Virus record (IMG/VR): IMGVR_UViG_3300045988_094428 | Coordinates: 1 to 64,000 of that record | Source of the DNA: a virus | Direction: 5' to 3' (one strand) | Length of the DNA: 64,000 nucleotides | Shown here: positions 19,493 to 38,643 of the stretch, piece after piece | How the letters are laid out: every line of letters starts with the position of its first letter | How positions within the stretch are numbered: the first letter of the stretch is position 1 | Position numbers and translations under genes: made by a program | Notes under the pieces: model-generated | What the model was told of the DNA's origin: nothing | Database searches by the model: none | What the model saw: the letters and a program-made list of their open reading frames with translations, nothing else

Positions 19493-19630
19493 ATCGCACC
19501 TATGCTGTGGTAGAATAGGTATAGGCAAGTATTTTAACTACCGTGTCCATAGAGTTAATGGACTTGGGAGGTACTGACAAGACAGAAGAGCAAGTACCAT
19601 GCACGTGGGCGGGTATTCGTGCTTTCATTT

Positions 19631-19718
19631 GCGCTCGTAGCTAAGTTGGTATAGCACCGGACTTTTAATCCGGGGTGGATTATTCCTATCGTGGGTTCAA
19701 GTCCCACCGGGCGCACCA
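19631..19718 (+). tRNA. Class II-architecture tRNA with anticodon TTT (Lys-reading anticodon on a long-variable-arm scaffold), CCA encoded
   Basis: Acceptor GCGCTCG/CGGGCGC, D arm GCTA/TAGC, anticodon arm CCGGA-CTTTTAA-TCCGG (perfect), 17-nt variable arm with GGA/TCC stem, T arm GTGGG-TTCAAGT-CCCAC. Confidence 0.5.
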
Positions 19719-19866
19719 CGCGGTAAGTAGTTTTCGAGTTGCGACTATTGTAGCTGGTATTCGTAAAAAATATAGTAAATGCGTGATATGACAGTATGCC
19801 GCGTTTGTGTCAAGGAACAAGCACATTGCGGATAAACCGATGACTGCTGGAAAGACAGCGTTTTAT

Positions 19867-19943
19867 GTTTCCATAGCTCAGTTGGTTAGAGCGCAATCCT
19901 GATAAGATTGAGGTCGAATGTTCAATTCATTCTGGAAACACCA
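19867..19943 (+). tRNA. tRNA-Ile (anticodon GAT), CCA encoded
   Basis: Acceptor GTTTCCA/TGGAAAC, D arm GCTC/GAGC, anticodon arm CAATC-CTGATAA-GATTG, T arm GAATG-TTCAATT-CATTC. Confidence 0.75.
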
Positions 19944-19955
19944 CTTATTTATTAT

Positions 19956-22573: not shown

Positions 22574-23581
22574 ATGGCATTTAATTTTAATGTACAAGAA
22601 GCTGTACGTGAGAAGATTGCTGTCAAGATTGCGCTGATGGGGCCTAGTGGATGCGGCAAGAGTTATTCCGCATTGCGTTTGGCAACTGGTATGATTGACG
22701 AAATGCGGAAGCGTGATGTTCTTGAGGGAACTAACGGTAAAATTCTTTTTGCGAATACAGAAGGCCCTCGTGGTCGGTATTATGCCAAGGAGTTTAAGTT
22801 CGATATTGTTGACTTGAATCCCCCTTACAATCCTGAGCTGTTTATCGACCTTATCAACTTTGCTGTTCAGCAGAAGTATTCAATTCTTGTGATTGATAGT
22901 TCGTCCGCTGAATGGGAAGGACGTGGTGGTTGTCTTGATTTGCAACAGCAGTTTGGTGGAAACTATCAGGCATGGGCGAAGGTTACTCCTCGTCATGATA
23001 AGTTCATTGATACCATGGCATATTCGCCCATCCACATTATTAGTACGATGAAGGGTAAAGACCAGTATGAGGTCGATAAGGATGACCGTGGTAAGGTTAC
23101 TGTCAAGAAGCTCGGTGTTGGCGCAAAACAGCGCGAGGGCTTTGAATACTACTTTACTACGACTTTTATGATTGACCGCGATAGTCACATGGCAAAGTGC
23201 GAAAAGGATAATACCCACATTTTTGAAAATGAAGGTATTACTCGATTGGATGAAAGTCATGGTGCTAAGATTATCGACTGGGCAAACGATGGCGCTGACG
23301 ACAATTCCTACGCAAACAATTATAATCCTGTAAAGGCAGATATTTCTACCGGTAATCCTGCGGCAGTCGGCAAAGCATCTGATTCGGAAGTTGCATCCAG
23401 TATTGAATCTATTGCAAGTCTGATTGAAGCCCTCAAGACCAAGGGCGTTGACCGTATGGATATTGCAAAGGCTATTTCTAAGCATCATATCGTAAATGGC
23501 AAGCCTGTTGCAAACTATAATACGATTACAGATGGTGATGTAGCAAAGGCTGTTCTTGCAGAATTGGAGAGTTTAGCATAA
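22574..23581 (+). CDS. RecA-fold P-loop ATPase, Sak4-like recombination/annealing protein
   Basis: Walker A GPSGCGKS near the N-terminus, Walker B-like ILVIDS; located immediately upstream of SSB. Confidence 0.4.
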   Translation: MAFNFNVQEAVREKIAVKIALMGPSGCGKSYSALRLATGMIDEMRKRDVLEGTNGKILFANTEGPRGRYYAKEFKFDIVDLNPPYNPELFIDLINFAVQQKYSILVIDSSSAEWEGRGGCLDLQQQFGGNYQAWAKVTPRHDKFIDTMAYSPIHIISTMKGKDQYEVDKDDRGKVTVKKLGVGAKQREGFEYYFTTTFMIDRDSHMAKCEKDNTHIFENEGITRLDESHGAKIIDWANDGADDNSYANNYNPVKADISTGNPAAVGKASDSEVASSIESIASLIEALKTKGVDRMDIAKAISKHHIVNGKPVANYNTITDGDVAKAVLAELESLA

Positions 23582-25099: not shown

Positions 25100-28063
25100 A
25101 TGAGTGAACTTCTGGATAAAATCATTGAAGCAAAAGGAGTTCTTGGTGATAGACAAGCAGAGATTATCGCAGAGGGTTATCCGCTTGAAGAGTGGAATCC
25201 AGAGAAAGGCTCTGCAAAATCTATCTTCAATGCTAACGACAATAATCCTTCAATGATGTGGATGAAAAAGGACTACTACTTTAAGGACTTCTCCACTGGT
25301 AAGGTGTTCGGTATCTTGGACTATTATATGTACAAGTTTGGTGAACCTTACATGAAGGCAGTTAAGCGTTTGTTAGATGAAACAAAGGTAAAATACGACC
25401 CATCTCTGTTTAGTTTTACAGCGCCAACTGAACAGAAGGATTATTTCAAGAACTTTAGATATCCTAAAATCGAAGATGATATTTCCGGTGTTGCGTTGGA
25501 GTATATGGCAAAGCGCGGTATTTCCGAAGAGACGTGTCGTTATGTCGGCCTTGGTTCTGATATGCATGGGAACGTTGCATATCAGTTTAGGGATTTGACC
25601 GGACGTGTTGTTACAGTCAAATATCGTCCTAGTCATGCAATTAAGAGTGGCGAACCAAAATATTTCTATCAGAAAAATGCTGATACTTGCCCTATTCTTT
25701 ATAACATTAACAAGATTGATATAACACAGCCGCTTTTGTTGACAGAGGGTATGAACGATACTATGGCCTGTATTGAGGCTGGCTTCAAAAACGTCGTAAG
25801 TATTCCATCTGGCGCAAATGATGATAACTGGATTAACTTTAACTATGAGTTCTTAGACCAGTTTGAAGATATTATCCTTTGGTTTGATAACGATGATGCT
25901 GGAGAAAGTGGTATGAAGAAAGCCATTCCTCGCCTTGGTGAATATCGTATTAAGATTGTCAAACCTACGGAGGATGATGAAGAAGCGGTTTATAATTACT
26001 ATCATAGCTTTAATGAGAATGTAGATATTCGTAAAACTGATGCGAATAATGTTTTGTTGGCTTGTGGTAGCGCAAGAATCCTCGCGTTGATTAACTCTGC
26101 CGAAGAAATTCCTATGGAAAGCGTTATCGACCTGATGGACGTTGAGGAATTTGATATTGAACAGACTGAATATATTCCGAGCGGTATCAATTCGCTTGAT
26201 AGACAGATTTACGGTTTCATTGACGGAACATTGAACATCTGGACTGCCTACTCGGGTTGTGTTGACTGTGACACAGAGTTCTTTGATGGTACTAAGTGGA
26301 AGCGAATTGCTGATTTCCAGAATGGCGATAAGGTGTTACAGTATAACGATGATGGAACAACGTCACTTGTTACTCCTTGGATTTATCATAAATACAAGGC
26401 AGATACGCTATGGCATTTTTCTGCCAGAGGAATTGACCAGTGCTTATCTGATGAACACAATGTATGTTATTGGGATTCTAATGGCAAAAGACGTGAGAAG
26501 ACGTTTGATGAAATTCATAAAATTCATGAGAAGAATGTAAATGGATTTAGCGGAAAATTTAAACGGTCTTTTGAGTATTCTGGCGTTGGCATTGATTTAA
26601 GTGATGCGGAAATTAAATTGATGTGCGCAGTTATTTGTGATGGTACTTTTACTCACAATAAAACTAACCTATGTAGATTCCATCTGAAGAAGGATAGAAA
26701 AAAAGTTGAGGTTCGTAAGATTTTTGACGAGTGTGGCATTAAATACACCGAGCGTGAATCCTCGGCAAATGGTTATACCGACTTTTATTTCTATGCCCCT
26801 CGCAGAGAAAAGGAATTTACAGATTATTGGTATGATTGCTCTTATGAACAACTGATGGTCATTTGTGACAACATCCTTTTTTGGGATGGCAGTATTGACA
26901 AAAAAGGTAGGCGTGTATTTTCAACGACAATCAAAAAAACGGCAGACTTTGTGCAGTTTGCCTTTAGTGCCACTGGTCGCGGTGCATCTATTGGCGTTGA
27001 TGACAGACGTGGGCAAAAATACATTACTTGTGGAAAGATATACACTAGAAAATCCGTCACATACCGTGTTGTTATTTCTGATAGGATTTTCTGTTCGATG
27101 ATTGCAAGAGAAGAATCGTCAAAAACAAAAATTGAGGAGTATAAAACTAAGGATGGATTTAAATATTGCTTTACTGTTCCGAGTCATACATGGATAATGC
27201 GCAGAAACAACTGTATTTGTGTCACAAATAACTGCGGTAAAACTACTATGATTTCTCAAACTGTAGTTCTTGAGGCGATTGATAAGGGAAATACGGTATT
27301 CTGGTTTAACGCCGAATCGACAACAAGCCAAATGTTGAACTGGGTTTTGGCTCAGGCGGCTGGTAGACAGCACTCTGTTGAGTATACTGGCGCTAACGGA
27401 TTCCAGTTCTATAAGCCGACTCCACAAGCGACGCAAGCTATTAAGCAGTATTATGCAAAGAAAATTTTCGTCTATGATAACTTGCTTTTGTCGAATCCAG
27501 ATATGGTTTTCAACAAGATGAAAGAAGTTTATAAGCGGTTTGGTACAAAAGTTTTTGTTCTTGATAACTGGCTGTGTCTGAATTTCCGTGGTATTTCTGA
27601 TACAGAGGTGACTGGTATTCAGGTTGATTTCATGAATAAATTGATTCATTTCACAAAGCAGAATGGGTTGGAAATTCATCTTGTTTGCCATCCTCGTAAA
27701 CAACAGGCCGGTATTCCTCTTTCCGAGTATGAGATTCTTGGTACATCTAACATTGTTAATATGGCTGATAGAATCTATGGACTCGAAAAGGTTTGGGACA
27801 ATGACTTGAAGGCGCTAGGTTACGACAGACAGTTTACGGTTTTTAAGGATAGAACGCTTGGAATCCATGGTGAAAGAATTGGACTCAGATATGACCGTGT
27901 AACCAGACGTTTGTATGGAGACGGTGATGATAAGTTCAAGCAGTATTCTTGGGATAAAGGTTTAATTAGATACAATACTCCTATTTTTGGTAAGAATGGC
28001 TTGCTTGTTGGCGATAGAGTTCTCGATTACGAGCAAGCCGCCGCCAACAATACTCCGTATTGA
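25100..28063 (+). CDS. DNA primase-helicase (TOPRIM primase + DnaB-like helicase) with an intein inserted in the helicase Walker A motif
   Basis: TOPRIM LLLTEGMNDTMACIE...WFDNDDAGE. Splicing 26257/27233 gives AYSG-CGKTT, i.e. GxxGxGKT. Helicase motifs downstream (IHLVCHPRKQ). Confidence 0.7.
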   Translation: MSELLDKIIEAKGVLGDRQAEIIAEGYPLEEWNPEKGSAKSIFNANDNNPSMMWMKKDYYFKDFSTGKVFGILDYYMYKFGEPYMKAVKRLLDETKVKYDPSLFSFTAPTEQKDYFKNFRYPKIEDDISGVALEYMAKRGISEETCRYVGLGSDMHGNVAYQFRDLTGRVVTVKYRPSHAIKSGEPKYFYQKNADTCPILYNINKIDITQPLLLTEGMNDTMACIEAGFKNVVSIPSGANDDNWINFNYEFLDQFEDIILWFDNDDAGESGMKKAIPRLGEYRIKIVKPTEDDEEAVYNYYHSFNENVDIRKTDANNVLLACGSARILALINSAEEIPMESVIDLMDVEEFDIEQTEYIPSGINSLDRQIYGFIDGTLNIWTAYSGCVDCDTEFFDGTKWKRIADFQNGDKVLQYNDDGTTSLVTPWIYHKYKADTLWHFSARGIDQCLSDEHNVCYWDSNGKRREKTFDEIHKIHEKNVNGFSGKFKRSFEYSGVGIDLSDAEIKLMCAVICDGTFTHNKTNLCRFHLKKDRKKVEVRKIFDECGIKYTERESSANGYTDFYFYAPRREKEFTDYWYDCSYEQLMVICDNILFWDGSIDKKGRRVFSTTIKKTADFVQFAFSATGRGASIGVDDRRGQKYITCGKIYTRKSVTYRVVISDRIFCSMIAREESSKTKIEEYKTKDGFKYCFTVPSHTWIMRRNNCICVTNNCGKTTMISQTVVLEAIDKGNTVFWFNAESTTSQMLNWVLAQAAGRQHSVEYTGANGFQFYKPTPQATQAIKQYYAKKIFVYDNLLLSNPDMVFNKMKEVYKRFGTKVFVLDNWLCLNFRGISDTEVTGIQVDFMNKLIHFTKQNGLEIHLVCHPRKQQAGIPLSEYEILGTSNIVNMADRIYGLEKVWDNDLKALGYDRQFTVFKDRTLGIHGERIGLRYDRVTRRLYGDGDDKFKQYSWDKGLIRYNTPIFGKNGLLVGDRVLDYEQAAANNTPY
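26258..27232 (+). mobile_element. Intein (~325 aa) with LAGLIDADG-type endonuclease region in the primase-helicase P-loop
   Basis: Begins CVDCDTEFFDG (Cys1), ends ...VTNN followed by Cys+1 (CGKTT); internal AVICDGT and LFWDGSI DG motifs. Confidence 0.55.
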
Positions 28064-28075
28064 TGAGGTGACGTA

Positions 28076-29734
28076 ATGGCAAATTATACAATTTACCATC
28101 TTCATACCATGCTAAGTAATGCAGTAACAAATATCGACTCAGTTACTACGTTTAAGCAATACATAAAAAGAGCACAAGAGTGCGGTATGACCGCACTTGC
28201 TTTTTCAGAGCATGGTAATATTTTTGAATGGGTTCACAAGAAAGACGCTGTTGAAGCCGCTGGTTTGAAATATATTCATGCAATGGAGGCATATCTTACA
28301 GAGCGCATTCCAGATGAGGGCGAAGAAAAAATTCGTGATAACTACCACTGTGTTTTGATTGCCAAAAACTGGGAGGGTGTTAAGGAACTTAACCGTTTAC
28401 AAGGAAAGGCATTCAATAGAACAGACGGTCATTACTACTACGCACCGAGAATTACATTTGCTGAATTATTTGCTACAAGTAATAATATCATTATTACCAC
28501 AGCTTGTGTTGCATCTGCATTATGCAAAGGAACAGAAAGCGCGAAGGCGTCATATCTTAGATTTCTGACGAGACATAAAGATAGATGCTTCTTGGAAGTT
28601 CAGCATCATAATACGCAAAAGCAGTTTGAGTATAATAGATATTTGGCAAATCTGTCTAAGGAAACTGGTCTTAGATTGATTGCTGGTACTGATACGCATT
28701 GTTTAAACGCAGAGCATGAACTTGGTCGTAGCGCACTACAGCGTGGCAAGGGCGTTTTTTTCGATGATGAAGTCGGTTGGGATTTGACATGGAAAACCTA
28801 CGATGAACTTGTCGAGGCATATAGAACGCAAGATGCTCTCAGTGAAGAAGAATATATGTCTGCAATCAATAACACAAATGTTATGGCAGATATGATTGAA
28901 ACCTTTGAACTTGATAGAAGTTTCAAGTACGCAAAGATTTACGATGATGGTGAAAAAGTCCTCCGTGAAAAGTTGTTTGCGCCAGAAACTATCGAGCCGA
29001 TTATCAAGGAGGGATTTTCAAGAGAAGAAGTAACTGCGCGTTTGGAGCAGGAAATTGACACTTTTAAGGCTTTGAACGCAACTGACTTTATTCTTCTCGA
29101 AGACCATATTGTGCGTTGGGAGCATTCGCATGATATGTGGCAAGGCCCTGCGCGTGGAAGCGCCGCTAGTTCCTTGGCTTTGTACGCTTTGGGCGTGACA
29201 GAAGTGAACCCATTGAAATATGGATTTTATTTCTGGCGATTCATGGATAAATCTAAGTACAGCTTGGCTGATGTTGATATGGATAACTCGGCAAAAGACC
29301 GTGATAAACTGAAGTTCTGGATGTTGAACGACCACCTAGACCTTCCGAATGTCAAGACTTGTGAAATTATTACGTTCAACACAATCGCATTAAAGGGCGC
29401 AATTCGTGATATTGGACGTGGATTGGATATGCCTCTCGATGAGGTTGATACGATTGCAAAAGCTGTTCATGAAGTAGCAGTCGATGAAGAAAAGATTGTT
29501 ACTATTGATGATAGCTGGCGTAAGAAATATCCAGAGTTGTTCAAGTACGTTGATATTGTTATTGGCACTATCGTTAGCATCGGTTCTCATCCGTCTGGTG
29601 TTGTTGTTTCCGACCATGACATTGAATCGGAATTTGGCCTGTGCTATCTAAAAGATGACCCCTATCCTGTCTCCTGCATCAATATGAAGGAACTTGATTC
29701 CCTTAATTTTACCAAACAGGATGCCCTTGGGTAA
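28076..29734 (+). CDS. dnaE: DNA polymerase III alpha (DnaE-like), N-terminal portion (PHP domain through the finger region); reading frame leaves the polymerase around 29711-29734
   Basis: PHP-domain start YHLHTMLSNAV...ALAFSEHGNIFEW. C-terminal end ...CINMKELDSLNF aligns to the DnaE LLKMDF box. Confidence 0.6.
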   Translation: MANYTIYHLHTMLSNAVTNIDSVTTFKQYIKRAQECGMTALAFSEHGNIFEWVHKKDAVEAAGLKYIHAMEAYLTERIPDEGEEKIRDNYHCVLIAKNWEGVKELNRLQGKAFNRTDGHYYYAPRITFAELFATSNNIIITTACVASALCKGTESAKASYLRFLTRHKDRCFLEVQHHNTQKQFEYNRYLANLSKETGLRLIAGTDTHCLNAEHELGRSALQRGKGVFFDDEVGWDLTWKTYDELVEAYRTQDALSEEEYMSAINNTNVMADMIETFELDRSFKYAKIYDDGEKVLREKLFAPETIEPIIKEGFSREEVTARLEQEIDTFKALNATDFILLEDHIVRWEHSHDMWQGPARGSAASSLALYALGVTEVNPLKYGFYFWRFMDKSKYSLADVDMDNSAKDRDKLKFWMLNDHLDLPNVKTCEIITFNTIALKGAIRDIGRGLDMPLDEVDTIAKAVHEVAVDEEKIVTIDDSWRKKYPELFKYVDIVIGTIVSIGSHPSGVVVSDHDIESEFGLCYLKDDPYPVSCINMKELDSLNFTKQDALG

Positions 29735-31088
29735 ACAATCCTGCCCAAGTAAAAGCGAGTTATATGCTGGGAAGTGCTTAGAGCCTCAGTTACCAAAGTG
29801 TGACAATACTGAGGATTGCACAATCAGCAGGCACGATAAGTTCTGCCTCAACGACTATGGGAATATCCCAACTGTCATAGAGTGATTTATGACAGTAACC
29901 TCGCTGAAATGATATAGTCTGGTCTGCATTTAATAGTGCAGAGTCAAGCAGAAATGACTTGACATTTTGTTTGCTTTCTGATATAATATATGTAAAGGTG
30001 GTGATTGTATGGCGAAAGCAAGATATACGAAAGTGTAGTTCTATAATGAAATACTCCGGTTGTATAAAGAGTATGGCGAGATAAACCAAAATATCTACGC
30101 AAAACACACAAGTCTTGATGTTAGCTTTAGACAGTATTGTAATAAGTACGGTGGATTAAAGCAGATATGTAAAGACCTTGGAATAGAGTATAGCTATTAT
30201 AATGAAGTTTCCAAAGAGCAAGCGCTTGAACGTGGGCGAATGTTGCTAGAGCAATATGGATTCTTGCGAAAGGAACTTTGTCAAAAGAACGGAATATCAT
30301 CTAGTACAGTTGCGAAACTGTTTGGAAGTTATCAAAACTTTTATAAGGAAGTTGGATATAACACAGACTTTCGTAGAGATGTTCCAGTTGAAGCTGTAAG
30401 AAAAGATATACTCGAATTTATAACCGAAACTGGTTCTAAGTCAATTACAGACTACAAGAAAGCGCATCGGTATTCACAATCTATAATTGATAGATGTGGT
30501 GGGTGGCATACAATTCTTGTTGATATTGGAGTAGAACCAAAGAAATGGCGTAATGGTAAAGACAATATAATCAAACAGACACGTGAATTGATAAACAAAT
30601 ATGGTTATCTGTCAAGTAAACTAATAGAAGATAATTGCGATTTTACTTTGCAAGCGTTGGAGTATTACTTAGGAAACGCTGATAGTATTTGCAAATATTT
30701 CGGTAATGAGCATTTATTTGACTACGGCAGAAGTAGTCAAGAACTCAGAATAGCAGAGTTACTCGAAGATATTCTAGGTGTCGGGAATTTTTCACGTGAA
30801 GTTGCATGGGATTGGTTGTTGTCAGACAGCGGCAATCATCTGTATGTGGACTTTTATATTGATTCTTTAAAAGTTGCGATAGAATATGACGGTGAGCAAC
30901 ACTACAAATACGTTGAAAGGTTTCATAGAAATTATGATGGGTTTCTTGAATATCAGCGTAGAGATAATATAAAGAGTTCGTTGCTTGCAGAACATAACAT
31001 CAAACTTATTAGAATATCATATACGCAAGAAATATCAGAAAAATATCTAAGAGATATATTAAGCAAACAAAATTAACAAAATTACGTG
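29711..31088 (+). mobile_element. ~1.35-kb intervening sequence splitting dnaE (putative group I intron, boundaries approximate), carrying an endonuclease ORF and an internal promoter
   Basis: The DnaE alignment resumes in the next ORF (xDNVGIINE... vs TLTIINW...; AIMQEPQMAFVQEFCGYDFLRADKLRKIIGKK vs the DnaE YQEQVMQIA...GADLLRRAMGKK). Internal promoter gactTGACAttttgtttgctttctgaTATAAT at 29959-29988. Confidence 0.4.
30060..31076 (+). CDS. Endonuclease with C-terminal DUF559/Vsr-like PD-(D/E)XK domain, encoded inside the dnaE intervening sequence
   Basis: VDFYIDSLKVAIEYDGEQHY...RDNIKSSLLAEHNIKLIRI matches the Vsr-like restriction-endonuclease fold common in free-standing and intron-encoded HEGs. 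Confidence 0.5.
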   Translation: MYKEYGEINQNIYAKHTSLDVSFRQYCNKYGGLKQICKDLGIEYSYYNEVSKEQALERGRMLLEQYGFLRKELCQKNGISSSTVAKLFGSYQNFYKEVGYNTDFRRDVPVEAVRKDILEFITETGSKSITDYKKAHRYSQSIIDRCGGWHTILVDIGVEPKKWRNGKDNIIKQTRELINKYGYLSSKLIEDNCDFTLQALEYYLGNADSICKYFGNEHLFDYGRSSQELRIAELLEDILGVGNFSREVAWDWLLSDSGNHLYVDFYIDSLKVAIEYDGEQHYKYVERFHRNYDGFLEYQRRDNIKSSLLAEHNIKLIRISYTQEISEKYLRDILSKQN

Positions 31089-32621
31089 GATAACGTGGGT
31101 ATTATCAATGAAACTTGTAAATTAGCTGGCATCGAGAGATTGTCACCTAAGACGATTGACTTTGAGGATGATGCAGTTTGGAATAGTATCAAGGAAGATA
31201 CATCTTTGATTTTTCAGATGAACTCCAACTATGGTCAGCGCACAGTTGATAAGATGTTGTCACCAGAGGTTTACAGCAAGATTAAGAAGCAGATTCCTAA
31301 TATGACACGTTTGGATTTGCTGACGTTCATCAATGCTCTTATTCGTCCTTGCGGCAAGGGAGTTTATGATGATGCGACGAACGGCATCGTATCTAAAACA
31401 GGAATCAGAGAGATTGATGATTTGCTTGGTTCTTCTATGGGCTATGCAATTATGCAGGAACCTCAGATGGCTTTTGTTCAGGAGTTCTGTGGTTATGATT
31501 TCTTGAGAGCTGATAAACTTCGTAAGATTATCGGCAAGAAACTTGGTACACGTGACCAGCTTCCTATTATTAAGGAAGGTTGGGAAAAGAACGCAAAGGT
31601 CAAATATCATTTAACCGATGAGCAGTCTGACAAGATTATCAATCCGTTCTTACAGTGTATTCTCGATGCTACACGATATTCATTCTCGCTGGTTCATAGT
31701 TTGAGCTATTCTTGCATCAGCTATGAATGTGCATATCTGCGTTATCATTATCCGTTACAGTATTTGACTTCTTGCCTTAACGCATGGAACGGTGACGATA
31801 ACAAGACAGCAGAAGCTATTGAATACGCAAATAGTCGCAAGGTAAAGATTCTTGCGCCTAAGTTCAGACACGCAAAGGCAGAATATTTCTATGACCTTTC
31901 TACAAACAGTATTTATAAAGGTACGAGTAGTATCAAGGGATTAAATGCAGGGTATTCTGATTTCTTGTATTCTTTGAAGGATAATTCTTACAAGACATTT
32001 ACAGACCTACTGTACGATATTCAGGCATCTGGTATGCCTCGTGACCAAGTTGAAACTTTGATTAAACTTGACTACTTTGAGGAGTTTGGCACTTGCAGAG
32101 AGTTGGCAACAATCTTTAAGCAGTTCCAGTTCTTTAAGAAGGGCGAAGCGAAAACGATTGCTAAGAGCAAGATTCCAGACGAGATTACAATGAGCATTAT
32201 TAAACGCAATGCTAACGAAACCGAAAAGCAGTTTAATAAGCTGAATTGCCATAATATCTTAAATGAGATTGAACAGTACATTATGACAATGAATCTTGGT
32301 GATGTTGACATTAAAACCAAGATTGCTAATCAGCTTGAGTATATGGGTTACATTGGCATTAAGACTGACAAACCCGAAGATAGACCTAAAATTGTCATTC
32401 TTGAAATGAAGGTTATGAAACAGCGTGAATCTGTTGAGCCTTGGGGCGTTATCATTGATGCGCAGTCTATCGGTTCTGGTAAGCGCAGTTCTTATACAGT
32501 TCCTTATAAACTGTATAAACAGTGTAAGTTCAACAAGAATGATGTAATTAAGATTCGTGATTGGTATAAGAACAAACGTGGTTATTTCTATATTACTGAT
32601 TACGAGTTCGTGTTTATGTAA
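31086..32621 (+). CDS. dnaE: DnaE-like polymerase, C-terminal portion (palm/fingers to C-terminus)
   Basis: MQEPQMAFVQEFCGYDFLRADKLRKIIGKK and downstream segments align to Pol III alpha. Confidence 0.6.
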   Translation: MDNVGIINETCKLAGIERLSPKTIDFEDDAVWNSIKEDTSLIFQMNSNYGQRTVDKMLSPEVYSKIKKQIPNMTRLDLLTFINALIRPCGKGVYDDATNGIVSKTGIREIDDLLGSSMGYAIMQEPQMAFVQEFCGYDFLRADKLRKIIGKKLGTRDQLPIIKEGWEKNAKVKYHLTDEQSDKIINPFLQCILDATRYSFSLVHSLSYSCISYECAYLRYHYPLQYLTSCLNAWNGDDNKTAEAIEYANSRKVKILAPKFRHAKAEYFYDLSTNSIYKGTSSIKGLNAGYSDFLYSLKDNSYKTFTDLLYDIQASGMPRDQVETLIKLDYFEEFGTCRELATIFKQFQFFKKGEAKTIAKSKIPDEITMSIIKRNANETEKQFNKLNCHNILNEIEQYIMTMNLGDVDIKTKIANQLEYMGYIGIKTDKPEDRPKIVILEMKVMKQRESVEPWGVIIDAQSIGSGKRSSYTVPYKLYKQCKFNKNDVIKIRDWYKNKRGYFYITDYEFVFM

Positions 32622-33130
32622 GGAGGCATTCTATGTGGCTACTTTGTAGCGTATCAGATAACGAGCTTCTTGCTCCAAGTATTTGCAGTTCGAAGGAACT
32701 CGCGTTAAGGAAAATGGATAGCAGTATCAATTTTATCCTTAATGACTTAGATAGTGATGGTATCGACTATGATACACACGTTGGCTCTGATGGATTGAGC
32801 TATCAGATTGTATGTGACGATAATATTTGGACTTGGAAGATTTTCCATTTGGAAATGAAGGTGGCGTAAAATGAAGGTAGAAATTTCTTACGATAAGATT
32901 GAGACGCTTGATGGAAAAAAGGTAAAACTTGACGTTGACAATATTTTGTCACGTAAACTATCTGTCGCAGATAGATTCAGAAAATTCTTGCTAAAGAATA
33001 AGGATGTTGTGTTTACTGCGATTGATACAAAAAAAGGCACTAAGTTCACTGGTATCGCTTATGAGTTAGCAGAGGATAATTCTCCTGTTAAGTGGTTATT
33101 TTACGCGGATGATTTAATTGCTGTTGAGGG

Positions 33131-33637
33131 GTGATTGTTATACATAAGGTTATTGTTATCAATGGTATGCCGAGAAGCGGCAAAGACACCTTCGTATCTT
33201 TCGCCAGTAAATATGCTACAACTACTAATTTCTCAAGCGTTGATTTCGTAAAAGATGTAGCGCATTTTGCTGGATGGAATGGCGAAAAAGACCTAAAGTC
33301 TCGTTTATTCCTTAGCAAGCTCAAAGAATTACTTACTGAATATGATGATATTCCATATAAGAAAATTGCTGAAGAGATTCATTGGTTTAAGAGTCAGCCA
33401 GAACAGGAACTCTTGTTTATACATATTAGAGAGCCGGGTGAAATCGCACGTATTGTAAGAGATTTCGGTGCAATAACTGTTTTGGTTAAACGTGCAAACA
33501 ATCAGCAAATTGTATCTAACGATTCTGATAAATATACGGAGTCTTATAATTATGATTTCGTTTTGAACAATGATAGTGACCTTGACGCTTTAGATGCGAA
33601 AGCGCGAGGTTTCGTAAATTATTTAAAAAGAGGTTAA
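33131..33637 (+). CDS. Deoxynucleoside monophosphate kinase-like P-loop protein
   Basis: VIVINGMPRSGKDTF Walker A of the T4 gp1-like dNMP kinase type. Confidence 0.4.
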   Translation: MIVIHKVIVINGMPRSGKDTFVSFASKYATTTNFSSVDFVKDVAHFAGWNGEKDLKSRLFLSKLKELLTEYDDIPYKKIAEEIHWFKSQPEQELLFIHIREPGEIARIVRDFGAITVLVKRANNQQIVSNDSDKYTESYNYDFVLNNDSDLDALDAKARGFVNYLKRG

Positions 33638-33648
33638 GGAGTATAACG

Positions 33649-34161
33649 ATGGTTAAGTTTGAAAAGATTAGTTATGAGCAGTTTGAAAAAGATTATGTCG
33701 CAATTTTTGGTGACGAAATTGAAAAGGGCTGTATTAAGAACATCTATGACAGTTTGAGACTTCCGAGACGTAGCACTACAGGCTCTTGCGGTTATGATTT
33801 CTTTAGTCCATTCGAGTTCATTCTTGAAGAGCCTAACGCAGAGCTTATTATTCCAACTGGTATTCGTGCGATTATGGACGATGATAAGTTTTTGATGATT
33901 GCACCTCGTAGTGGTCTTGGCACTAGGCACTATATGCGTCTTGCCAATACTATCGGTATCGTAGATAGTGATTATTCTAAGTCTGATAATGAAGGTCATA
34001 TCTTCATTAAGTATCGTCTTGAAAATCACAACTCTGATAGTGTAAATGTGAAAACTGGAATGGCTATTGCACAGGGTATCTTTATGAATTATCTAAAGAC
34101 GAATGACGATGATGCGGACGGGCTTCGTAATGGTGGATTCGGTAGCACTGACAAAAAGTGA
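33649..34161 (+). CDS. dut: dUTP diphosphatase (dUTPase)
   Basis: Motifs PRSGLG, GIVDSDY, and C-terminal RNGGFGSTD (motif V). Confidence 0.7.
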   Translation: MVKFEKISYEQFEKDYVAIFGDEIEKGCIKNIYDSLRLPRRSTTGSCGYDFFSPFEFILEEPNAELIIPTGIRAIMDDDKFLMIAPRSGLGTRHYMRLANTIGIVDSDYSKSDNEGHIFIKYRLENHNSDSVNVKTGMAIAQGIFMNYLKTNDDDADGLRNGGFGSTDKK

Positions 34162-35226
34162 GGTGTCTAAATGCAGGATGAGTTAAAAAGCATCGAGAAA
34201 CTTAAACCTTGGGAGTTTCTCAAGAAATATTGTTATCCTTGGCTTGGCGCAGAGGTAGATTATCCAGATTTATTCGGCAAGTATGGGATGACATATTGCG
34301 GAATTGGGGATAAATGGTGCTGGTATTCAGAAAAAGATGTGCGTGTTTTGAACGATACAAACTGGGATAAAGGCCGGACATACTGTAAAGTAACTGACGT
34401 TACATTCGAAGAAGCGTATAAGATGGTAGCACTTACTACTGCTTATTGGCAACCTATGCACGATAAAGAGTTCGAGGAATATAACGAATATAAGCGACTT
34501 GACATGATTCGTAGACTCTTTATGAATCATCCAAAAGAGCGCGCGAAGTATTTCAAAGATTGCCCAGACGAGAAAGATGTATATTATGAGAGATTCCCAG
34601 AGGAGAAGGCACTATATGAAACTGAGTAATTTCTTTTTGCACTTAAAGAAGATTATCGTTCATAGGTATTGGGTATTTTACTTTTGTTGCAAAGCTGGTA
34701 TCCCTTGGCAAGGGATTACCCACGACCTTAGCAAGTTTTCGCCGGTTGAGTTTTGGGAGGGTGTGAAATATTATCAAGGCAACAGAAGCCCCATTGATGC
34801 TTGCAAAGAAGAGAATGGTTACTCTATGGCGTGGCAACACCATAAAGGACGTAACCCACATCACTATGAATATTGGCAAGATAATTTTGATAATGGTGGA
34901 ATACCGCTAAAAATGCCATATAAATACGCGCTTGAAATGGTGTGTGATTATCTTGGTGCAGGACGAGCATATATGGGCAAAGCCTTCACATTAGATAAAG
35001 AATGGCAATGGTGGCTTGGCAAGTGTTCCAAGCCTATTGCAATGCACCCACAAACTAAGAAGTTTGTAAATTGTATGCTTTGGGAGATTAAAGAGGATAA
35101 TTCTTATAACGCACTGAAAGACTATTCACGTGCGATTTATGATAATGCAAATATTGATACGGGGGTGGTTTTTTGATTGATGTCAAATCTTATGTTTAGA
35201 AGCGAAAGACGGATATACAAGATTAT

Positions 35227-35961
35227 TTGTCTAAAATAAAGCCGTCGAGGGATACGCTCGTAATAATTCAGTTTGGTGACAATCCGGCAAGCAATGCTTA
35301 TGTAAATGGAAAGATGCGTGATTGCGAAGAGGTTGGATTGCGCACGATAAGATATAAACTTTCAGTAGATACTGAATATGCAGAAGCGTTGAGAGTTTTA
35401 ATAATGTCGCAAGAAAATCCAAAAGTCGCTGGTGTTATAGTTCAGTTGCCTGTTCCAGAGCATCTAAAAGGAATTGCGACACATATTAAACCAGAATTTG
35501 ACGTTGATGGATTTTTACCTGATACTAAGTTTGTCCCTGCAACTCCTAAAGGGGTAATTGAGTTATTGGATAACGAACTCAATTATAATTTTGTTGGGAA
35601 AGTTTGTACAGTAATTGGCAAAAGCCATATAGTCGGTGAACCGTGTGCAAATTTAATTAAAGGACGTGGGGCAACAGTAATTTGGTGTGATAGTCATACA
35701 GTTGATTTAAAAAAATGGTGTTTACAATCAGATTTAATTGTGACAGCCACTGGTAGACCGGGACTAATTACACCAGATATGATTAGGCCAGAAACTGTAG
35801 TGATTGATGTCGGGATTACTCGTGGTGATGATGGTAAGTTGTGCGGTGATGTTGATAAGTCTTGTTACTCTGATGATGCACTAATTACACCAGTGCCCGG
35901 TGGCGTAGGACTTCTTACACGAGTTGCACTACTTGAAAATCTAGTATATGAGGTGAAATAA
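35227..35961 (+). CDS. folD: FolD-like methylenetetrahydrofolate dehydrogenase/cyclohydrolase
   Basis: VIGKSHIVGEPCANLI...ATVIWCDSHT...VVIDVGI...PVPGGVGLLT matches the FolD NAD(P)-binding half nearly motif for motif. Confidence 0.7.
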   Translation: MSKIKPSRDTLVIIQFGDNPASNAYVNGKMRDCEEVGLRTIRYKLSVDTEYAEALRVLIMSQENPKVAGVIVQLPVPEHLKGIATHIKPEFDVDGFLPDTKFVPATPKGVIELLDNELNYNFVGKVCTVIGKSHIVGEPCANLIKGRGATVIWCDSHTVDLKKWCLQSDLIVTATGRPGLITPDMIRPETVVIDVGITRGDDGKLCGDVDKSCYSDDALITPVPGGVGLLTRVALLENLVYEVK

Positions 35962-36337
35962 TGACAGTAACACAGGAATATATAAATGAACTTTTAGATA
36001 CAGCAGAAGTAAAAGAAATTGTTGTATTTGAAAAATGCCTAATCTGTGCTTATAAGTTTACAAATGGTTTTGTGATTGTTGAATCAAGTGCATGTGTTGA
36101 CCCAAAGAATTTTGACTTAGATGTTGGTCGAAAGATTTGCCGTGAACACGCTGAGAACAAACTTTGGGAACTTGAAGGCTATGTGCTTCAGCAAAAGGCC
36201 ACTAAAGCCACCCAGAGACGCTCCCCGGAGGCTGTAAAGAAATCCATCGAGGAATTGTCCCCGGAGGCCAGAGCTGTCTATGAGACGCTATTAGGTCAGC
36301 TCAAGGAAAAGTACCCTGTGAATATCTAAAAATTTTC

Positions 36338-36374
36338 TGAAACCCCTTGACAAATCAAGGGGTTTCTGTTATAA
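36338..36374 (+). promoter_or_regulatory. Promoter whose -35 box sits in the loop of a terminator-like hairpin
   Basis: GAAACCCCTT-gacaaatc-AAGGGGTTTC hairpin with TTGACA 36346-36351 and TATAAT 36369-36374. Confidence 0.55.
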
Positions 36375-37974
36375 TATAGGTAGTAAATTTTAGGAGGTTT
36401 GACATGAAACTAACAGAGTGTCAGGCCAGCACAGACTATACGAAATACTGGCTATCACCATACACCAATTCACAATATCCAGATTTTAAGACACCTTATC
36501 TAAAGATAAAAGAGGATTCAGCGAAGGATGTAAAAGTCGATGATATTGTTTATTGGGTAGAAAGAAGTCCTAGCGCAGCGATTGAGAGAAAAATATCTGT
36601 GCAGTGTGGGATTATCGTAGACGTATATCCAGACTGTTATGTTGCTAATCATCTTGCAGTTGCCGAATATATCACGTTCAGACTATATGACGAAAAGACG
36701 GAAAAGTTGTTTACAGATACCGCATCTTGGCGTGAGTATTTTCAGAATGTATCTTGGAGAAAATATCCGTCTAAAAAGGAACTGTCCGACAGTAGACATC
36801 TGTTTACTTTCAATCGGAAACCGCTGTATGAACTTATTGGTGGTAAACCTCCGAATTTGAAAGATATTGATGCTATCAAGGCGGCGTACAAATCTGGTAT
36901 TATTTGTAAGAGAAATGATGTAGTCGGATATGCGTCTTGCCCATATAGTGAGATTGATAAGGGCAGTTGGAAGCCGATTTTGAAGAGTGATTACGAGTCT
37001 GACAACACAACTCTTTCTAAGAGTCTTACATTCGCAACGTATGACGATGCAGTAAGATTAAAAGACTGTATTGAGCATGAATATGACTGGGTTTCTGGTT
37101 TAACCGATGAACAGTACACGCTTCTTGAAATGGACAAGGCTTTAAATAAACTTGTCCGTGACGGTATGTTGGAATCTGATGCGCGTAGAATTGCCTACTT
37201 TATGTTAAAGCAAAAGAAGTTAGTAGATATTGAGTTTCGCACTCTTCACGGCAAATTCCAATGGAGGAGCTACGACAATAAAAAGTGGAACAATGTAAAT
37301 CCTGAGAATATCCCACTTATCGAAGATGAGGTGTAGTTATGACCCATGTAACCGATGCTGAACGCTATCTGGCAGAATTAAAAAGTGCAATGGATTACTA
37401 CGGTAATATGCTCGATAAGCAGCATGGCAGTAACCATGACGCATACGTTAAGTATGATGTTGCACGATGTCAGTATAACGCCGCAAAAAGAATGATGGAA
37501 CTTATGAAGAGGTAAAATATGATTGTAGAGAAGAGTTTTATTGATGCTATCAAGTATGCGAAGAAGAACAGCGTTATGATTCGGCCAGAATATTGGAGTC
37601 TTTGGATTCAGTATGTTAAGTCCAATGGTGGGTTTTTCTGGTGCGACAAGAGTGGTAGAATTACTGAAGACCATGGCCTCGATAAGAGCGTAGTGGTCTG
37701 TGATAAGATTCTCGATGTTACCAGATGGGAATTTATGTGTGATGAGCTTGTTGACGATGCGGAGGGCAGCAATGACGGAAACCGAGTATAATCAGCTTGT
37801 TTTAGATTTGGCAAACGAATCGGAAGATACGCTGTATTTTATGTTTAGAAATTCTATTCGTCAGGTTAGATTCACAAGCCCTTACGAAAATGATTATCGG
37901 TACGTTGTTGCGCGACACAACGCAATTTGTGAGGCGTTTAAGAAAAAGACTGGACATAACATTTTGGAGGACTT

Positions 37975-38643
37975 TTGCTAATGATTAACGTAGGGAATGA
38001 TTGGCAACCGTTCTTTGATATAGAACAGCAAAAACCATTTTATAAGAATCTAAAGAGATTTCTTGCACAGGAATATGCAACAAAGACGGTATATCCACCG
38101 ATGCAAGACATCTTTAAGGCGTTTGAATTAACGCCTATACATAATACAAAGGTGGTAATAATTGGACAAGACTGTTACCATGGCGATGGGCAAGCAATGG
38201 GACTGTCGTTTTCTGTTAGGAACGGCGTATATCCAACCCCGCCATCTTTAAAAAATATTCAAAAGGAACTTAATTCTGAAGCAGTTGAGCGTAGTGAGTG
38301 GTCACAGGATTTGACAAGATGGGCAGAACAGGGTGTCTTATTGTTGAACACAATTTTAACAGTAAGACAGCACGAACCACTATCACACGCAAATCAGGGT
38401 TGGGAAACATTGACCGATGACGCAATTAAAGAGTTAGAGAAATACGACCAGCCCATTATTTACTTATTATGGGGTAAGAATGCCGGGTCTAAAAAGAATC
38501 TAATTACAAATCAAAATCATAAATTCCTAGAATCTGCGCATCCGTCACCGCTAAGTGCGAATCGTGGCTTCTTTGGGAATGGTCACTTCGCAAAAGCGAA
38601 TGAGTTTTTGATTGAGAATGGCTTAGAGCCAGTGAGGTGGTAA
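37975..38643 (+). CDS. ung: Uracil-DNA glycosylase (family 1)
   Basis: GQDCYHGDGQAMGLSFSV and HPSPLSA motifs. Confidence 0.8.
   Translation: MLMINVGNDWQPFFDIEQQKPFYKNLKRFLAQEYATKTVYPPMQDIFKAFELTPIHNTKVVIIGQDCYHGDGQAMGLSFSVRNGVYPTPPSLKNIQKELNSEAVERSEWSQDLTRWAEQGVLLLNTILTVRQHEPLSHANQGWETLTDDAIKELEKYDQPIIYLLWGKNAGSKKNLITNQNHKFLESAHPSPLSANRGFFGNGHFAKANEFLIENGLEPVRW

Follow-up and report, generated by a model that had tools for sequence, protein, structure and literature searches.

We analysed a window of viral DNA (the whole stretch of 64,000 nucleotides, positions 1 to 64,000 of the IMG/VR virus record IMGVR_UViG_3300045988_094428), in which an open reading frame (ORF) on the plus strand encodes a replicative primase-helicase precursor of 987 amino acids. 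Its ATP-binding loop is interrupted at 26258-27232, and we consider it highly probable that the interruption is a full-length, probably active intein, that is, a HINT splicing domain with a nested double-motif LAGLIDADG homing endonuclease, inserted into the Walker A motif between Gly386 and residue 387. Within a phage intein family that is very large, poorly annotated and directed at the P-loop of many unrelated ATPases, the element is an ordinary member. The parts of the locus are the following.

25100..28063 (+): precursor, a Toprim primase and DnaB/gp4-like helicase split by the putative intein
25100..26257 (+): N-extein, 386 amino acids, ending ...WTAYSG, collinear up to 26256 with L007, a sibling contig without the intein
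26246-26257 (+): N-terminal half of Walker A, A383-G386
26258..27232 (+): putative intein, 325 amino acids, Cys1-Asn325, missing from L007
26258..26569 (+): N-terminal HINT half, residues 1-104, placed by the family alignment, a profile match to the PDB entry 6zgq and the all-beta secondary structure of an AlphaFold2 model; it contains block A, CVDCDTEFF
26429-26470: block B, residues 58-71, GIDQCLSDEHNVCY, with S64 at B:7, H67 at B:10 and V69 at B:12
26570..27112 (+): LAGLIDADG homing-endonuclease domain, about residues 105-285, placed by Foldseek and a conserved Asp pair
26603-26647 (+): LAGLIDADG motif 1, including KLMCAVICDGTF at residues 119-130, with Asp128
26843-26893 (+): LAGLIDADG motif 2, including LMVICDNILFWDGS at residues 199-212, with Asp210-Gly211
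27113..27232 (+): C-terminal HINT half, residues 286-325, placed by residue conservation in the family
27158-27205 (+): block F, FKYCFTVPSHTWIMRR, with Cys304 at F:4
27212-27232 (+): block G, CICVTNN, with Thr323 at G:5, Asn324 at G:6 and Asn325 at G:7
27233..28063 (+): C-extein, 276 amino acids and stop codon, beginning at Cys+1 with CGKTTMISQ..., collinear with L007 from 27236
27233-27244 (+): C-terminal half of Walker A

The insert is in frame with the ORF and comprises 975 nucleotides, or 325 codons with zero stop codons. It begins with Cys1 (TGT, codon 387, 26258-26260), ends with Asn324-Asn325 (AAT AAC, codons 710-711, 27227-27232), and is followed by Cys+1 (TGC, codon 712, 27233-27235), so that the boundaries given by the original prediction, made from the sequence alone, are exact. 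The whole precursor is devoid of any [AG]x4GK[ST] motif; the intact P-loop elsewhere in the helicase that the same prediction had named as grounds for abandoning it is therefore not found. Splicing in silico yields a predicted mature protein of 662 amino acids with the junction ...WTAYSG-CGKTTM... (predicted peptide ...WTAYSGCGKTTM...) and a single Walker A motif, AYSGCGKT, at residues 383-390. The anticipated restoration of the P-loop thus holds, although the motif that appears is AxxGxGKT and not literally GxxGxGKT, and the two LAGLIDADG-type motifs noticed earlier in the insert are present. The GC content of the intein (37.4%) and of the exteins (39.8%) is uninformative.

The host protein is an SF4 (DnaB/T7 gp4-like) primase-helicase with a Toprim domain and a RecA-type helicase domain carrying Walker A. 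Its exteins match Pfam Toprim_2 (E 1.1e-9) and NCBIfam dnaG (E 4e-13), and there is a match to phrog_239, 'DNA primase/helicase' (E 1.7e-66). Removal of the insert in silico raises the DnaB_C score from 15.2 bits in the precursor to 34.4 bits (cutoff 27), with an alignment that crosses the junction uninterrupted, and AAA_25 reaches its cutoff after in-silico splicing only. The gene lies in a replication module together with an AAA_24 ATPase, SSB, a PD-(D/E)XK nuclease and DNA polymerase III alpha. The phage that carries the window is uncultured. A megablast search of the ORF against 50,697 phage records gave zero matches, and the nearest deposited phage relative of the protein, from an uncultured phage of human faeces, is 37.5% identical.

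Precisely intein-free alleles of this gene exist. A search with the spliced sequence returned the proteins P0056-58, which have the predicted spliced length of 662 amino acids and are 98% identical, together with more intein-free alleles at 84-90% identity; their uninterrupted loop has the sequence YSG-T-GKTT or YSG-V-GKTT. L007, the contig that encodes P0056, aligns collinearly with window positions 18840-40345 at 90-96% nucleotide identity, and the sole break within this gene, at 26256/27236, coincides with the intein boundaries apart from the substituted +1 codon (a 4-nucleotide unaligned gap). With a caret marking the insertion point here and below, the empty site is TAC TCA GGA ^ ACT GGC AAG ACC ACA, and the occupied site is TAC TCG GGT ^ intein ^ TGC GGT AAA ACT ACT. 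Mismatches to L007 amount to 11 of 30 nucleotides just downstream of the junction and 4 of 30 upstream, against 6.5% across the whole gene; such locally raised divergence would be expected from co-conversion, in the course of homing, of the neighbouring extein DNA with that of a donor allele. In this helicase family, the +1 residue is always Cys or Ser in intein-bearing alleles, and Thr, Val or occasionally Cys in empty ones. An independently assembled precursor (P0059, 98.6% identical) has the same ...VTNN^C end, and a third allele (P0142) also ends in N-N. At the same site, homologous helicases carry full (322-333 amino acids), endonuclease-decayed (257 amino acids) and mini (158 amino acids) forms, which are the expected stages of a homing cycle. 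The intein is a presence/absence polymorphism between sibling phages.

Splicing and cleavage by the insert are predicted activities, and nothing specific speaks against an active endonuclease in this copy. What weighs against reading the insert as an intein is that Pfam and NCBIfam return no significant intein or Hint match for the precursor, the insert or any of 21 family members; the curated models tried were Pfam Intein_splicing, Hint and Hint_2, and NCBIfam TIGR01443 and TIGR01445, and the closest approach was a sub-threshold Pfam LAGLIDADG_3 match in the insert (17.7 bits against a cutoff of 22.5 bits). The profile search that had been proposed as a check therefore comes out against the original prediction in its literal terms, which took a missing intein profile hit as refutation. 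We judge this miss to be a false negative of the libraries because of the following evidence. The insert has a match (E 1.5e-45) to PHROG 32482, a 'PhoH-like' family containing inteins, and 55 close homologues, the best with E 6e-107 and with up to 56% identity across all 325 residues. A single-sequence phmmer search against PDB gave a marginal match (E 0.077), but a profile of 21 homologues found the AceL NrdHF intein (6zgq) with E 1.2e-6, aligning the N-terminal block. The AlphaFold2 model of the insert has a predicted local distance difference test score (pLDDT) of 95.3 and a predicted template modelling score (pTM) of 0.92, and the top Foldseek matches of this model are the TliVMA, PI-SceI, PhoVMA and PI-PfuI inteins (E 5e-13 to 1e-10), while its central domain matches I-DmoI (E about 4e-5, template modelling (TM) score relative to target 0.53-0.58). 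For the natural 158-residue mini form at the same site of a homologous helicase (P0115), the best Foldseek match is AceL NrdHF 6zgq (E 4.7e-9, TM 0.74/0.77, about 20% identity), with an E value about 300-fold better than the next, and the best 50 of 57 matches at E<=1e-3 are all HINT domains. Finally, the catalytic residues Asp128 and Asp210 are conserved in 198 and 197 of 203 relatives, respectively; the conserved pair suggests that the endonuclease is probably active in most members of the family.

The residues at the positions expected to matter for splicing are as follows, with conservation counted here and below over the same 203 distinct full-length relatives.

Residue 1: Cys1; Cys in 200/203
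B:7: Ser64; S 165, C 20, T 18
B:10: His67; His in 202/203
B:12: Val69; V, I, F, C, L or M, with Trp in 0/203
F:4: Cys304; Cys in 201/203
G:5: Thr323; T 191, S 10
G:6: Asn324; Gly 183, His 7, Asn 3, Lys 3
G:7: Asn325; Asn in 201/203
+1: Cys; C 117, S 73, T 11 (Cys 58%)

The set of nucleophiles of a splicing intein is present (Cys1, Asn325 and Cys+1, with C, S or T at +1 in 201 of 203), as is the block B T/S-x-x-H motif in the form S64-D-E-H67. The penultimate His, common but non-obligatory in inteins, is replaced by Asn324. The Asn-Asn end had been singled out as unusual and possibly relevant for the splicing mechanism. It is real and rare, but it is no special anomaly, as most relatives have Gly and few have His at this position; it is a rare variant of an already non-canonical position, and not the interesting part of this element. 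For the mechanism, Cys304, invariant in block F, and Thr323 are of greater interest, and the original prediction had passed over both. With Gly as the norm at G:6, the lineage apparently does not rely on a penultimate His. Phage inteins are known to have lost this His (PMC5050341, PMC7891396) and often have Gly, Lys or Ser in its place, and the RDF intein with Gly splices faster than its own G-to-H mutant (PMC5050341). The earlier interpretation of a P-loop intein is, on the whole, supported by the precise intein-free alleles, the HINT and LAGLIDADG fold and these conserved splice residues.

Among solved structures, the one most closely related to the family is that of the AceL NrdHF split intein (PDB 6zgq; Hoffmann et al., 2020, PMC7891396), the only significant profile match in PDB (E 1.2e-6 and 2.2e-6). 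It shares with the window intein Ser at B:7, His at B:10, Cys at F:4, a Pro four residues past that Cys, and Thr at G:5. In both, B:12 is a hydrophobic residue other than Trp (Met in AceL NrdHF, Val in the window intein), and the penultimate residue is not His: AceL NrdHF ends in T-G-N, as does 90% of the present family, and the window intein in T-N-N. Probably, AceL NrdHF is phage-derived too. Biochemically it is a class 3 intein, with Met at B:12, Cys124, Thr144 and a T-G-N end, lacking both C-terminal His residues, and it is inactivated by G145H (PMC7891396). The two differ at residue 1, which is Ala1 in AceL NrdHF and an invariant Cys1 in this family. Moreover, AceL NrdHF is naturally split, is accompanied by a free-standing GIY-YIG gene and lies in an RNR beta subunit, whereas the window intein is contiguous, has an in-frame LAGLIDADG domain and lies in a P-loop. 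The class 3 mechanism is proven for AceL NrdHF and, for the window intein, suggested by its residues.

This resemblance raises the matter of the splicing chemistry. Standard inteins have Asp at F:4, and Cys there marks class 3 (PMC2807308), whose 'WCT' signature comprises Trp at B:12, Cys at F:4 and Thr at G:5, with that Cys, and not residue 1, attacking the N-terminal junction (PMC2807308, PMC4031507); a strongly conserved Thr at G:5 has been reported for class 3 only (PMC7891396). The window intein departs from the class 1 pattern of F:4 Asp and G:6 His, as it has Cys304 and Asn324. It has two of the three class 3 signature residues, namely the invariant Cys304 and Thr323, alongside an invariant Cys1, but Val69 in place of Trp, and its Cys1 departs from the class 3 rule of no nucleophile at residue 1. 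The Cys304-to-terminal-Asn spacing is 21 residues, as implied by published numbering for MP-Be DnaB (C320/N341, PMC2807308), Msm DnaBi1 (C118/T137, PMC6195587) and MchDnaB1 (C124/T143, PMC7664689). The window intein thus appears to have the class 3 Cys-His-Thr triad in an AceL-like context. That Cys304 corresponds to the F:4 Cys of class 3 is deduced from residue spacing, the superposition of whole domains by Foldseek and the motif pattern rather than from a residue-level alignment: the mini-profile alignment to 6zgq (E 2.2e-6) ends before block F, and a search with a 41-residue C-terminal consensus peptide gave chance matches to glycosidases only.

On this basis, we hold with about even confidence that Cys304 carries the N-extein as a block-F thioester, a class-3-type step that would replace the Cys1 thioester or relay from it. 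Several observations speak against such a step: the invariance of Cys1 argues for its use, in contrast to the canonical class 3 inteins at the GK^T site of these helicases, where residue 1 is A, S or C; Trp at B:12 is never found; the +1 residue is Cys here and in most relatives, while class 3 inteins typically have Ser or Thr (PMC2807308); and the hhalign comparison with the canonical WCT inteins of the GK^T site, at 89% probability, is driven mainly by the endonuclease domain and not by blocks F and G, which gives no support for a close kinship to canonical class 3 inteins. The invariant Cys1, the missing Trp and the Cys at +1 favour a purely class 1 route, in which Cys1 would undergo the N-S acyl shift, the N-extein would pass directly to Cys+1, Asn325 would cyclise, and Cys304 would replace the F:4 Asp as an organising residue of the active site without ever carrying the N-extein. 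The preserved S64-x-x-H67 in block B agrees with this route, as does the fact that related phage inteins with Gly at G:6 were regarded as class 1 and splice rapidly (RDF intein, PMC5050341), and we regard it as quite credible, if somewhat short of an even chance. Set against it are the invariant F:4 Cys and near-invariant G:5 Thr, which form the class 3 catalytic pair (PMC2807308, PMC7664689), and the proven class 3 nature of the closest solved relative with its T-G-N end (PMC7891396). The class 3 route has reportedly been shown for WCT inteins with Ser1 or Cys1 (Tori and Perler, 2011). Among 37 catalogued WCT-triplet inteins, three begin with Ser or Cys (PMC2807308), and MP-Catera Gp206 is cited as a class 3 intein (PMC2807308, PMC3196547). 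Large surveys define class 3 by the lack of an N-terminal Cys together with Cys at C2:4 (PMC7891396), and a lineage bearing Cys1 would therefore be left out by construction. We tentatively suggest, as a possibility that is rather less than likely, that the family is a huge, essentially unannotated lineage with both initiating nucleophiles (Cys1 and the block-F Cys) and the class 3 His-Thr pair, but without the Trp and the penultimate His.

Other explanations concern the fate or the role of the insert. A redox-gated intein, in which Cys1, Cys304, Cys+1 and the nearby Cys319 and Cys321 would permit a disulfide that keeps the primase-helicase inactive until reducing conditions are reached, would make the element a post-translational switch on phage replication and not a parasite alone. 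This finds a precedent in the P-loop class 3 intein DnaBi1 of M. smegmatis, which is reversibly blocked by a disulfide with the F:4 Cys (PMC6195587), and the surroundings of the active site here are rich in Cys (C1, C4, C62, C70, C304, C319, C321 and C+1); however, these Cys residues, except C1 and C304, are not conserved in the family, and intein-free alleles are common in sibling phages, which means that such a switch would be dispensable, so that we think it unlikely. A dead or decaying intein that no longer splices, with the phage relying on a helicase of the host or of a co-infecting phage, or with a defective genome, is very improbable. Although the penultimate Asn is rare (3/203) and non-splicing class-3-like pseudo-inteins exist (Arth_1007, PMC3196547), residues C1, S64, H67, C304, T323, N325 and C+1 and both LAGLIDADG Asp residues are intact, the N-N end recurs in P0059, which comes from an independent assembly, and in P0142, and the interrupted gene is the only primase-helicase of an otherwise intact replication module. 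Lastly, the insert might be a permanent domain, for example a nuclease module, retained in the mature helicase. The lack of a Pfam or NCBIfam intein match would fit, but this reading is effectively refuted, and we give it almost no weight: the insertion splits Walker A, the fold is that of HINT and LAGLIDADG, thousands of relatives in unrelated hosts retain the terminal Cys...Asn^Cys signature, and orthologues lack the insert precisely.

If the insert is a splicing intein, as we favour, the precursor would be ATPase-dead until the intein, after translation, excises itself and ligates the exteins to give an active helicase. The reactive set would be Cys1, Ser64/His67, Cys304, Thr323, Asn325 and Cys+1, and cyclisation of Asn325 would be aided by something other than a G:6 His. 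At the DNA level, the endonuclease would cut intein-free alleles at the sequence encoding G^xGK[ST], repair would copy the intein in, and the element would occasionally spread into other P-loop genes.

The distribution of the family is consistent with such spread. A profile search of 1.84 billion representative proteins returned 13,963 clusters at E<=1e-3, a count whose weaker matches will include other LAGLIDADG inteins, and 1,541 clusters at E<=1e-30. About 190 of the 203 relatives occupy the equivalent point of a P-loop, G^[C/S/T]GK[S/T/D], and so do the inteins of all 63 distinct viral-contig loci examined, at G^[CST]GK[ST]. The hosts include helicases (RecD2/SF1, PIF1-like and SNF2), ATPases (DnaB-like, KaiC/RecA-like, TraG/VirD4 coupling proteins and T2SSE ATPases) and others (AAA_5, PhoH, DnaC/IstB, terminase, and guanylate and dNMP kinases), which are non-homologous beyond the P-loop fold. 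Across the 63 loci, no nucleotide target signal was found beyond the amino-acid motif, and wobble bases vary freely, which suggests that the common target is little more than the codons for G-x-G-K-[S/T]. A target so short and common to P-loop NTPases would account for the spread of the family among so many ATPase genes that are unrelated. Not all relatives occupy P-loops: a minority is found at TEG[E/M]^CD in Toprim domains, among them those of alleles of this primase-helicase, and further relatives lie in RtcB and metallophosphoesterases. The clamp-loader-like protein P0177 (975 residues), from the search of representative proteins, has a P-loop intein (AGASG^C...SN^CGKTT) and, in its Walker B region, a second intein of the same type that follows VDE^C and ends ...ITGN^CHS, by which the family uses a Walker B site too.

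The clustering of inteins in P-loops is well known (PMC4760082), and P-loop hopping is not new in kind, although its scale in phages is striking. The DnaB P-loop had been invoked as a classic intein hot spot; the insert does lie in the helicase P-loop, but its site, G^xGK[ST], is three residues upstream of the 'classic' GK^T (PMC5050341). The primase-helicase family as a whole is a hot spot for inteins, which occupy at least four different sites in it, as seen in the homologues P0061, P0066, P0069, P0072-76, P0139, P0143, P0163 and P0164:

G^xGK: the site of the present intein
GK^T, which lies three residues downstream: class 3 inteins of the canonical WCT type (DHLW...CQCIMV...THN^T), whose residue 1 is A, S or C
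TEG[M/F]^CD in the Toprim motif: inteins of the same family
Near residue 64: a further site

Several known systems resemble the window intein in part. The canonical WCT inteins (MP-Be DnaB, Msm DnaBi1 and MchDnaB1; PMC2807308, PMC6195587, PMC7664689) are likewise phage-associated and lie in the ATP-binding loop of a helicase, with the F:4 Cys, the G:5 Thr, the 21-residue Cys-Asn spacing and, in many cases, a LAGLIDADG domain. They differ in that B:12 is Trp, residue 1 is not a nucleophile, the +1 residue is usually Ser or Thr and the end is T-H-N, and also in their GK^T site, three residues downstream in the same primase-helicase family. The primase/helicase intein of Pseudomonas phages vB_PsyM_KIL1-5 (e.g., KU130129.1) belongs to the same family as the window intein, is 36% identical over 325 amino acids and has the same kind of host and loop position (GSASG^CVDK...ITGN^TGKST), but it has a Gly-Asn end and Thr at +1, and its host protein is distantly related. 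In vB_PsyM_KIL4 (L001; KU130129.1, 54590-57391), the primase/helicase coding sequence, whose span holds the intein, is annotated as a two-piece join and not as containing an intein; if the join skips the intein, the annotators saw the interruption but coded it as a split coding sequence. The adjacent DNA polymerase coding sequence of KIL4 is a two-piece join as well.

The mycobacteriophage Bethlehem RDF intein type (Kelley et al., 2016, PMC5050341) is also phage-borne and of the LAGLIDADG type, with Gly, Lys or Ser at G:6; these inteins splice efficiently, and more slowly when His is restored (PMC5050341). Mycobacteriophage relatives of the present family at the TOPRIM site share its F:4 Cys and TGN end. 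The RDF-type inteins differ in occupying other host genes and sites and in being treated as class 1, and Asn is absent from their listed G:6 substitutions. The 'cluster 1' class 3 inteins of Anaeramoeba (Gallot-Lavallee et al., 2023, PMC10710043) likewise lie in the Walker A motif of non-homologous proteins. This has been interpreted as homing, at non-allelic sites, to a short motif that the proteins share, and these inteins have relatives in phages (PMC10710043). Their hosts are eukaryotic, unlike those of the present family, and their N-terminal residues are atypical. PI-SceI, TliVMA and PI-PfuI share the architecture of a HINT domain with LAGLIDADG between blocks B and F, but are about 10% identical, have class 1 residues (F:4 Asp and penultimate His) and extra DNA-recognition regions, and reside in other host genes.

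Other parts of the window yielded further observations. The P-loop of the neighbouring AAA_24 ATPase (window 22574-23581) is empty (GPSG-C-GKS, 22640-22663), and its homologues P0002 and P0005 carry an intein of the same family at that P-loop (MGPSG^CVDADTEF...TGN^SGKSYSALRL); the Cys at the would-be +1 position of the empty loop could be the footprint of a lost intein or mark a potential target. In the gene for DNA polymerase III alpha (28076 to about 32600), the ORF ends at ...KQDALG* (29734), while the polymerase of L007 is uninterrupted (1063 amino acids, ...KQDALGLDNVGIINE...) and lacks window positions 29731-31088. Excision of 29733-31086 from the gene restores GCC CTT GGG T^TG GAT AAC, that is, ALGLDN. 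The insert is group I intron-like, in that the 5' exon ends in U and the insert in G, and it encodes an ORF (30060-31076, 338 amino acids) with a sub-threshold 'homing endonuclease associated repeat' match (24 bits against a cutoff of 26 bits); an Rfam scan of 29000-38000 found no intron model or other match. At 36404-37336 lies a free-standing 310-residue ORF without a Pfam match, a strain-specific accessory gene, as L007 is without 36408-37338. Upstream of the replication module, further indels distinguish window 19494-19950 from L007 654-1886, where L007 holds segments of about 150-460 nucleotides missing from the window.

Published examples already exist of P-loop inteins, of phage inteins without the penultimate His, of class 3 variants and of P-loop hopping, and the interest of the present case lies in the combination of Cys1 with a block-F Cys that the original prediction had not noticed, in the size and promiscuity of the family, and in its invisibility to standard domain libraries. 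Because the intein splits Walker A, the replicative primase-helicase looks broken, with neither a Walker A motif nor a DnaB_C match, and the correct mature helicase of 662 amino acids can now be given. The effect extends beyond this gene: intein-bearing alleles lose their precomputed DnaB_C and AAA_25 Pfam matches, with the intein itself unannotated, and a family that numbers at least 1,541 representative clusters at E<=1e-30 and escapes the Pfam and NCBIfam intein models thereby systematically degrades the automatic annotation of phage ATPases, many of which a dedicated family profile would repair. As for the chemistry, Cys1 together with the F:4 Cys and the G:5 Thr, without the Trp and the penultimate His, offers a way to test how class 1 and class 3 relate, and a two-nucleophile lineage, if it is real, would bear on the claim that class 3 cannot evolve stepwise from class 1 (PMC7664689). 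Such a lineage would also be a natural scaffold whose endonuclease recognises little beyond the coding motif of G-x-G-K-[S/T], and the family offers a large natural data set for the study of homing between non-allelic sites that share a short protein motif.

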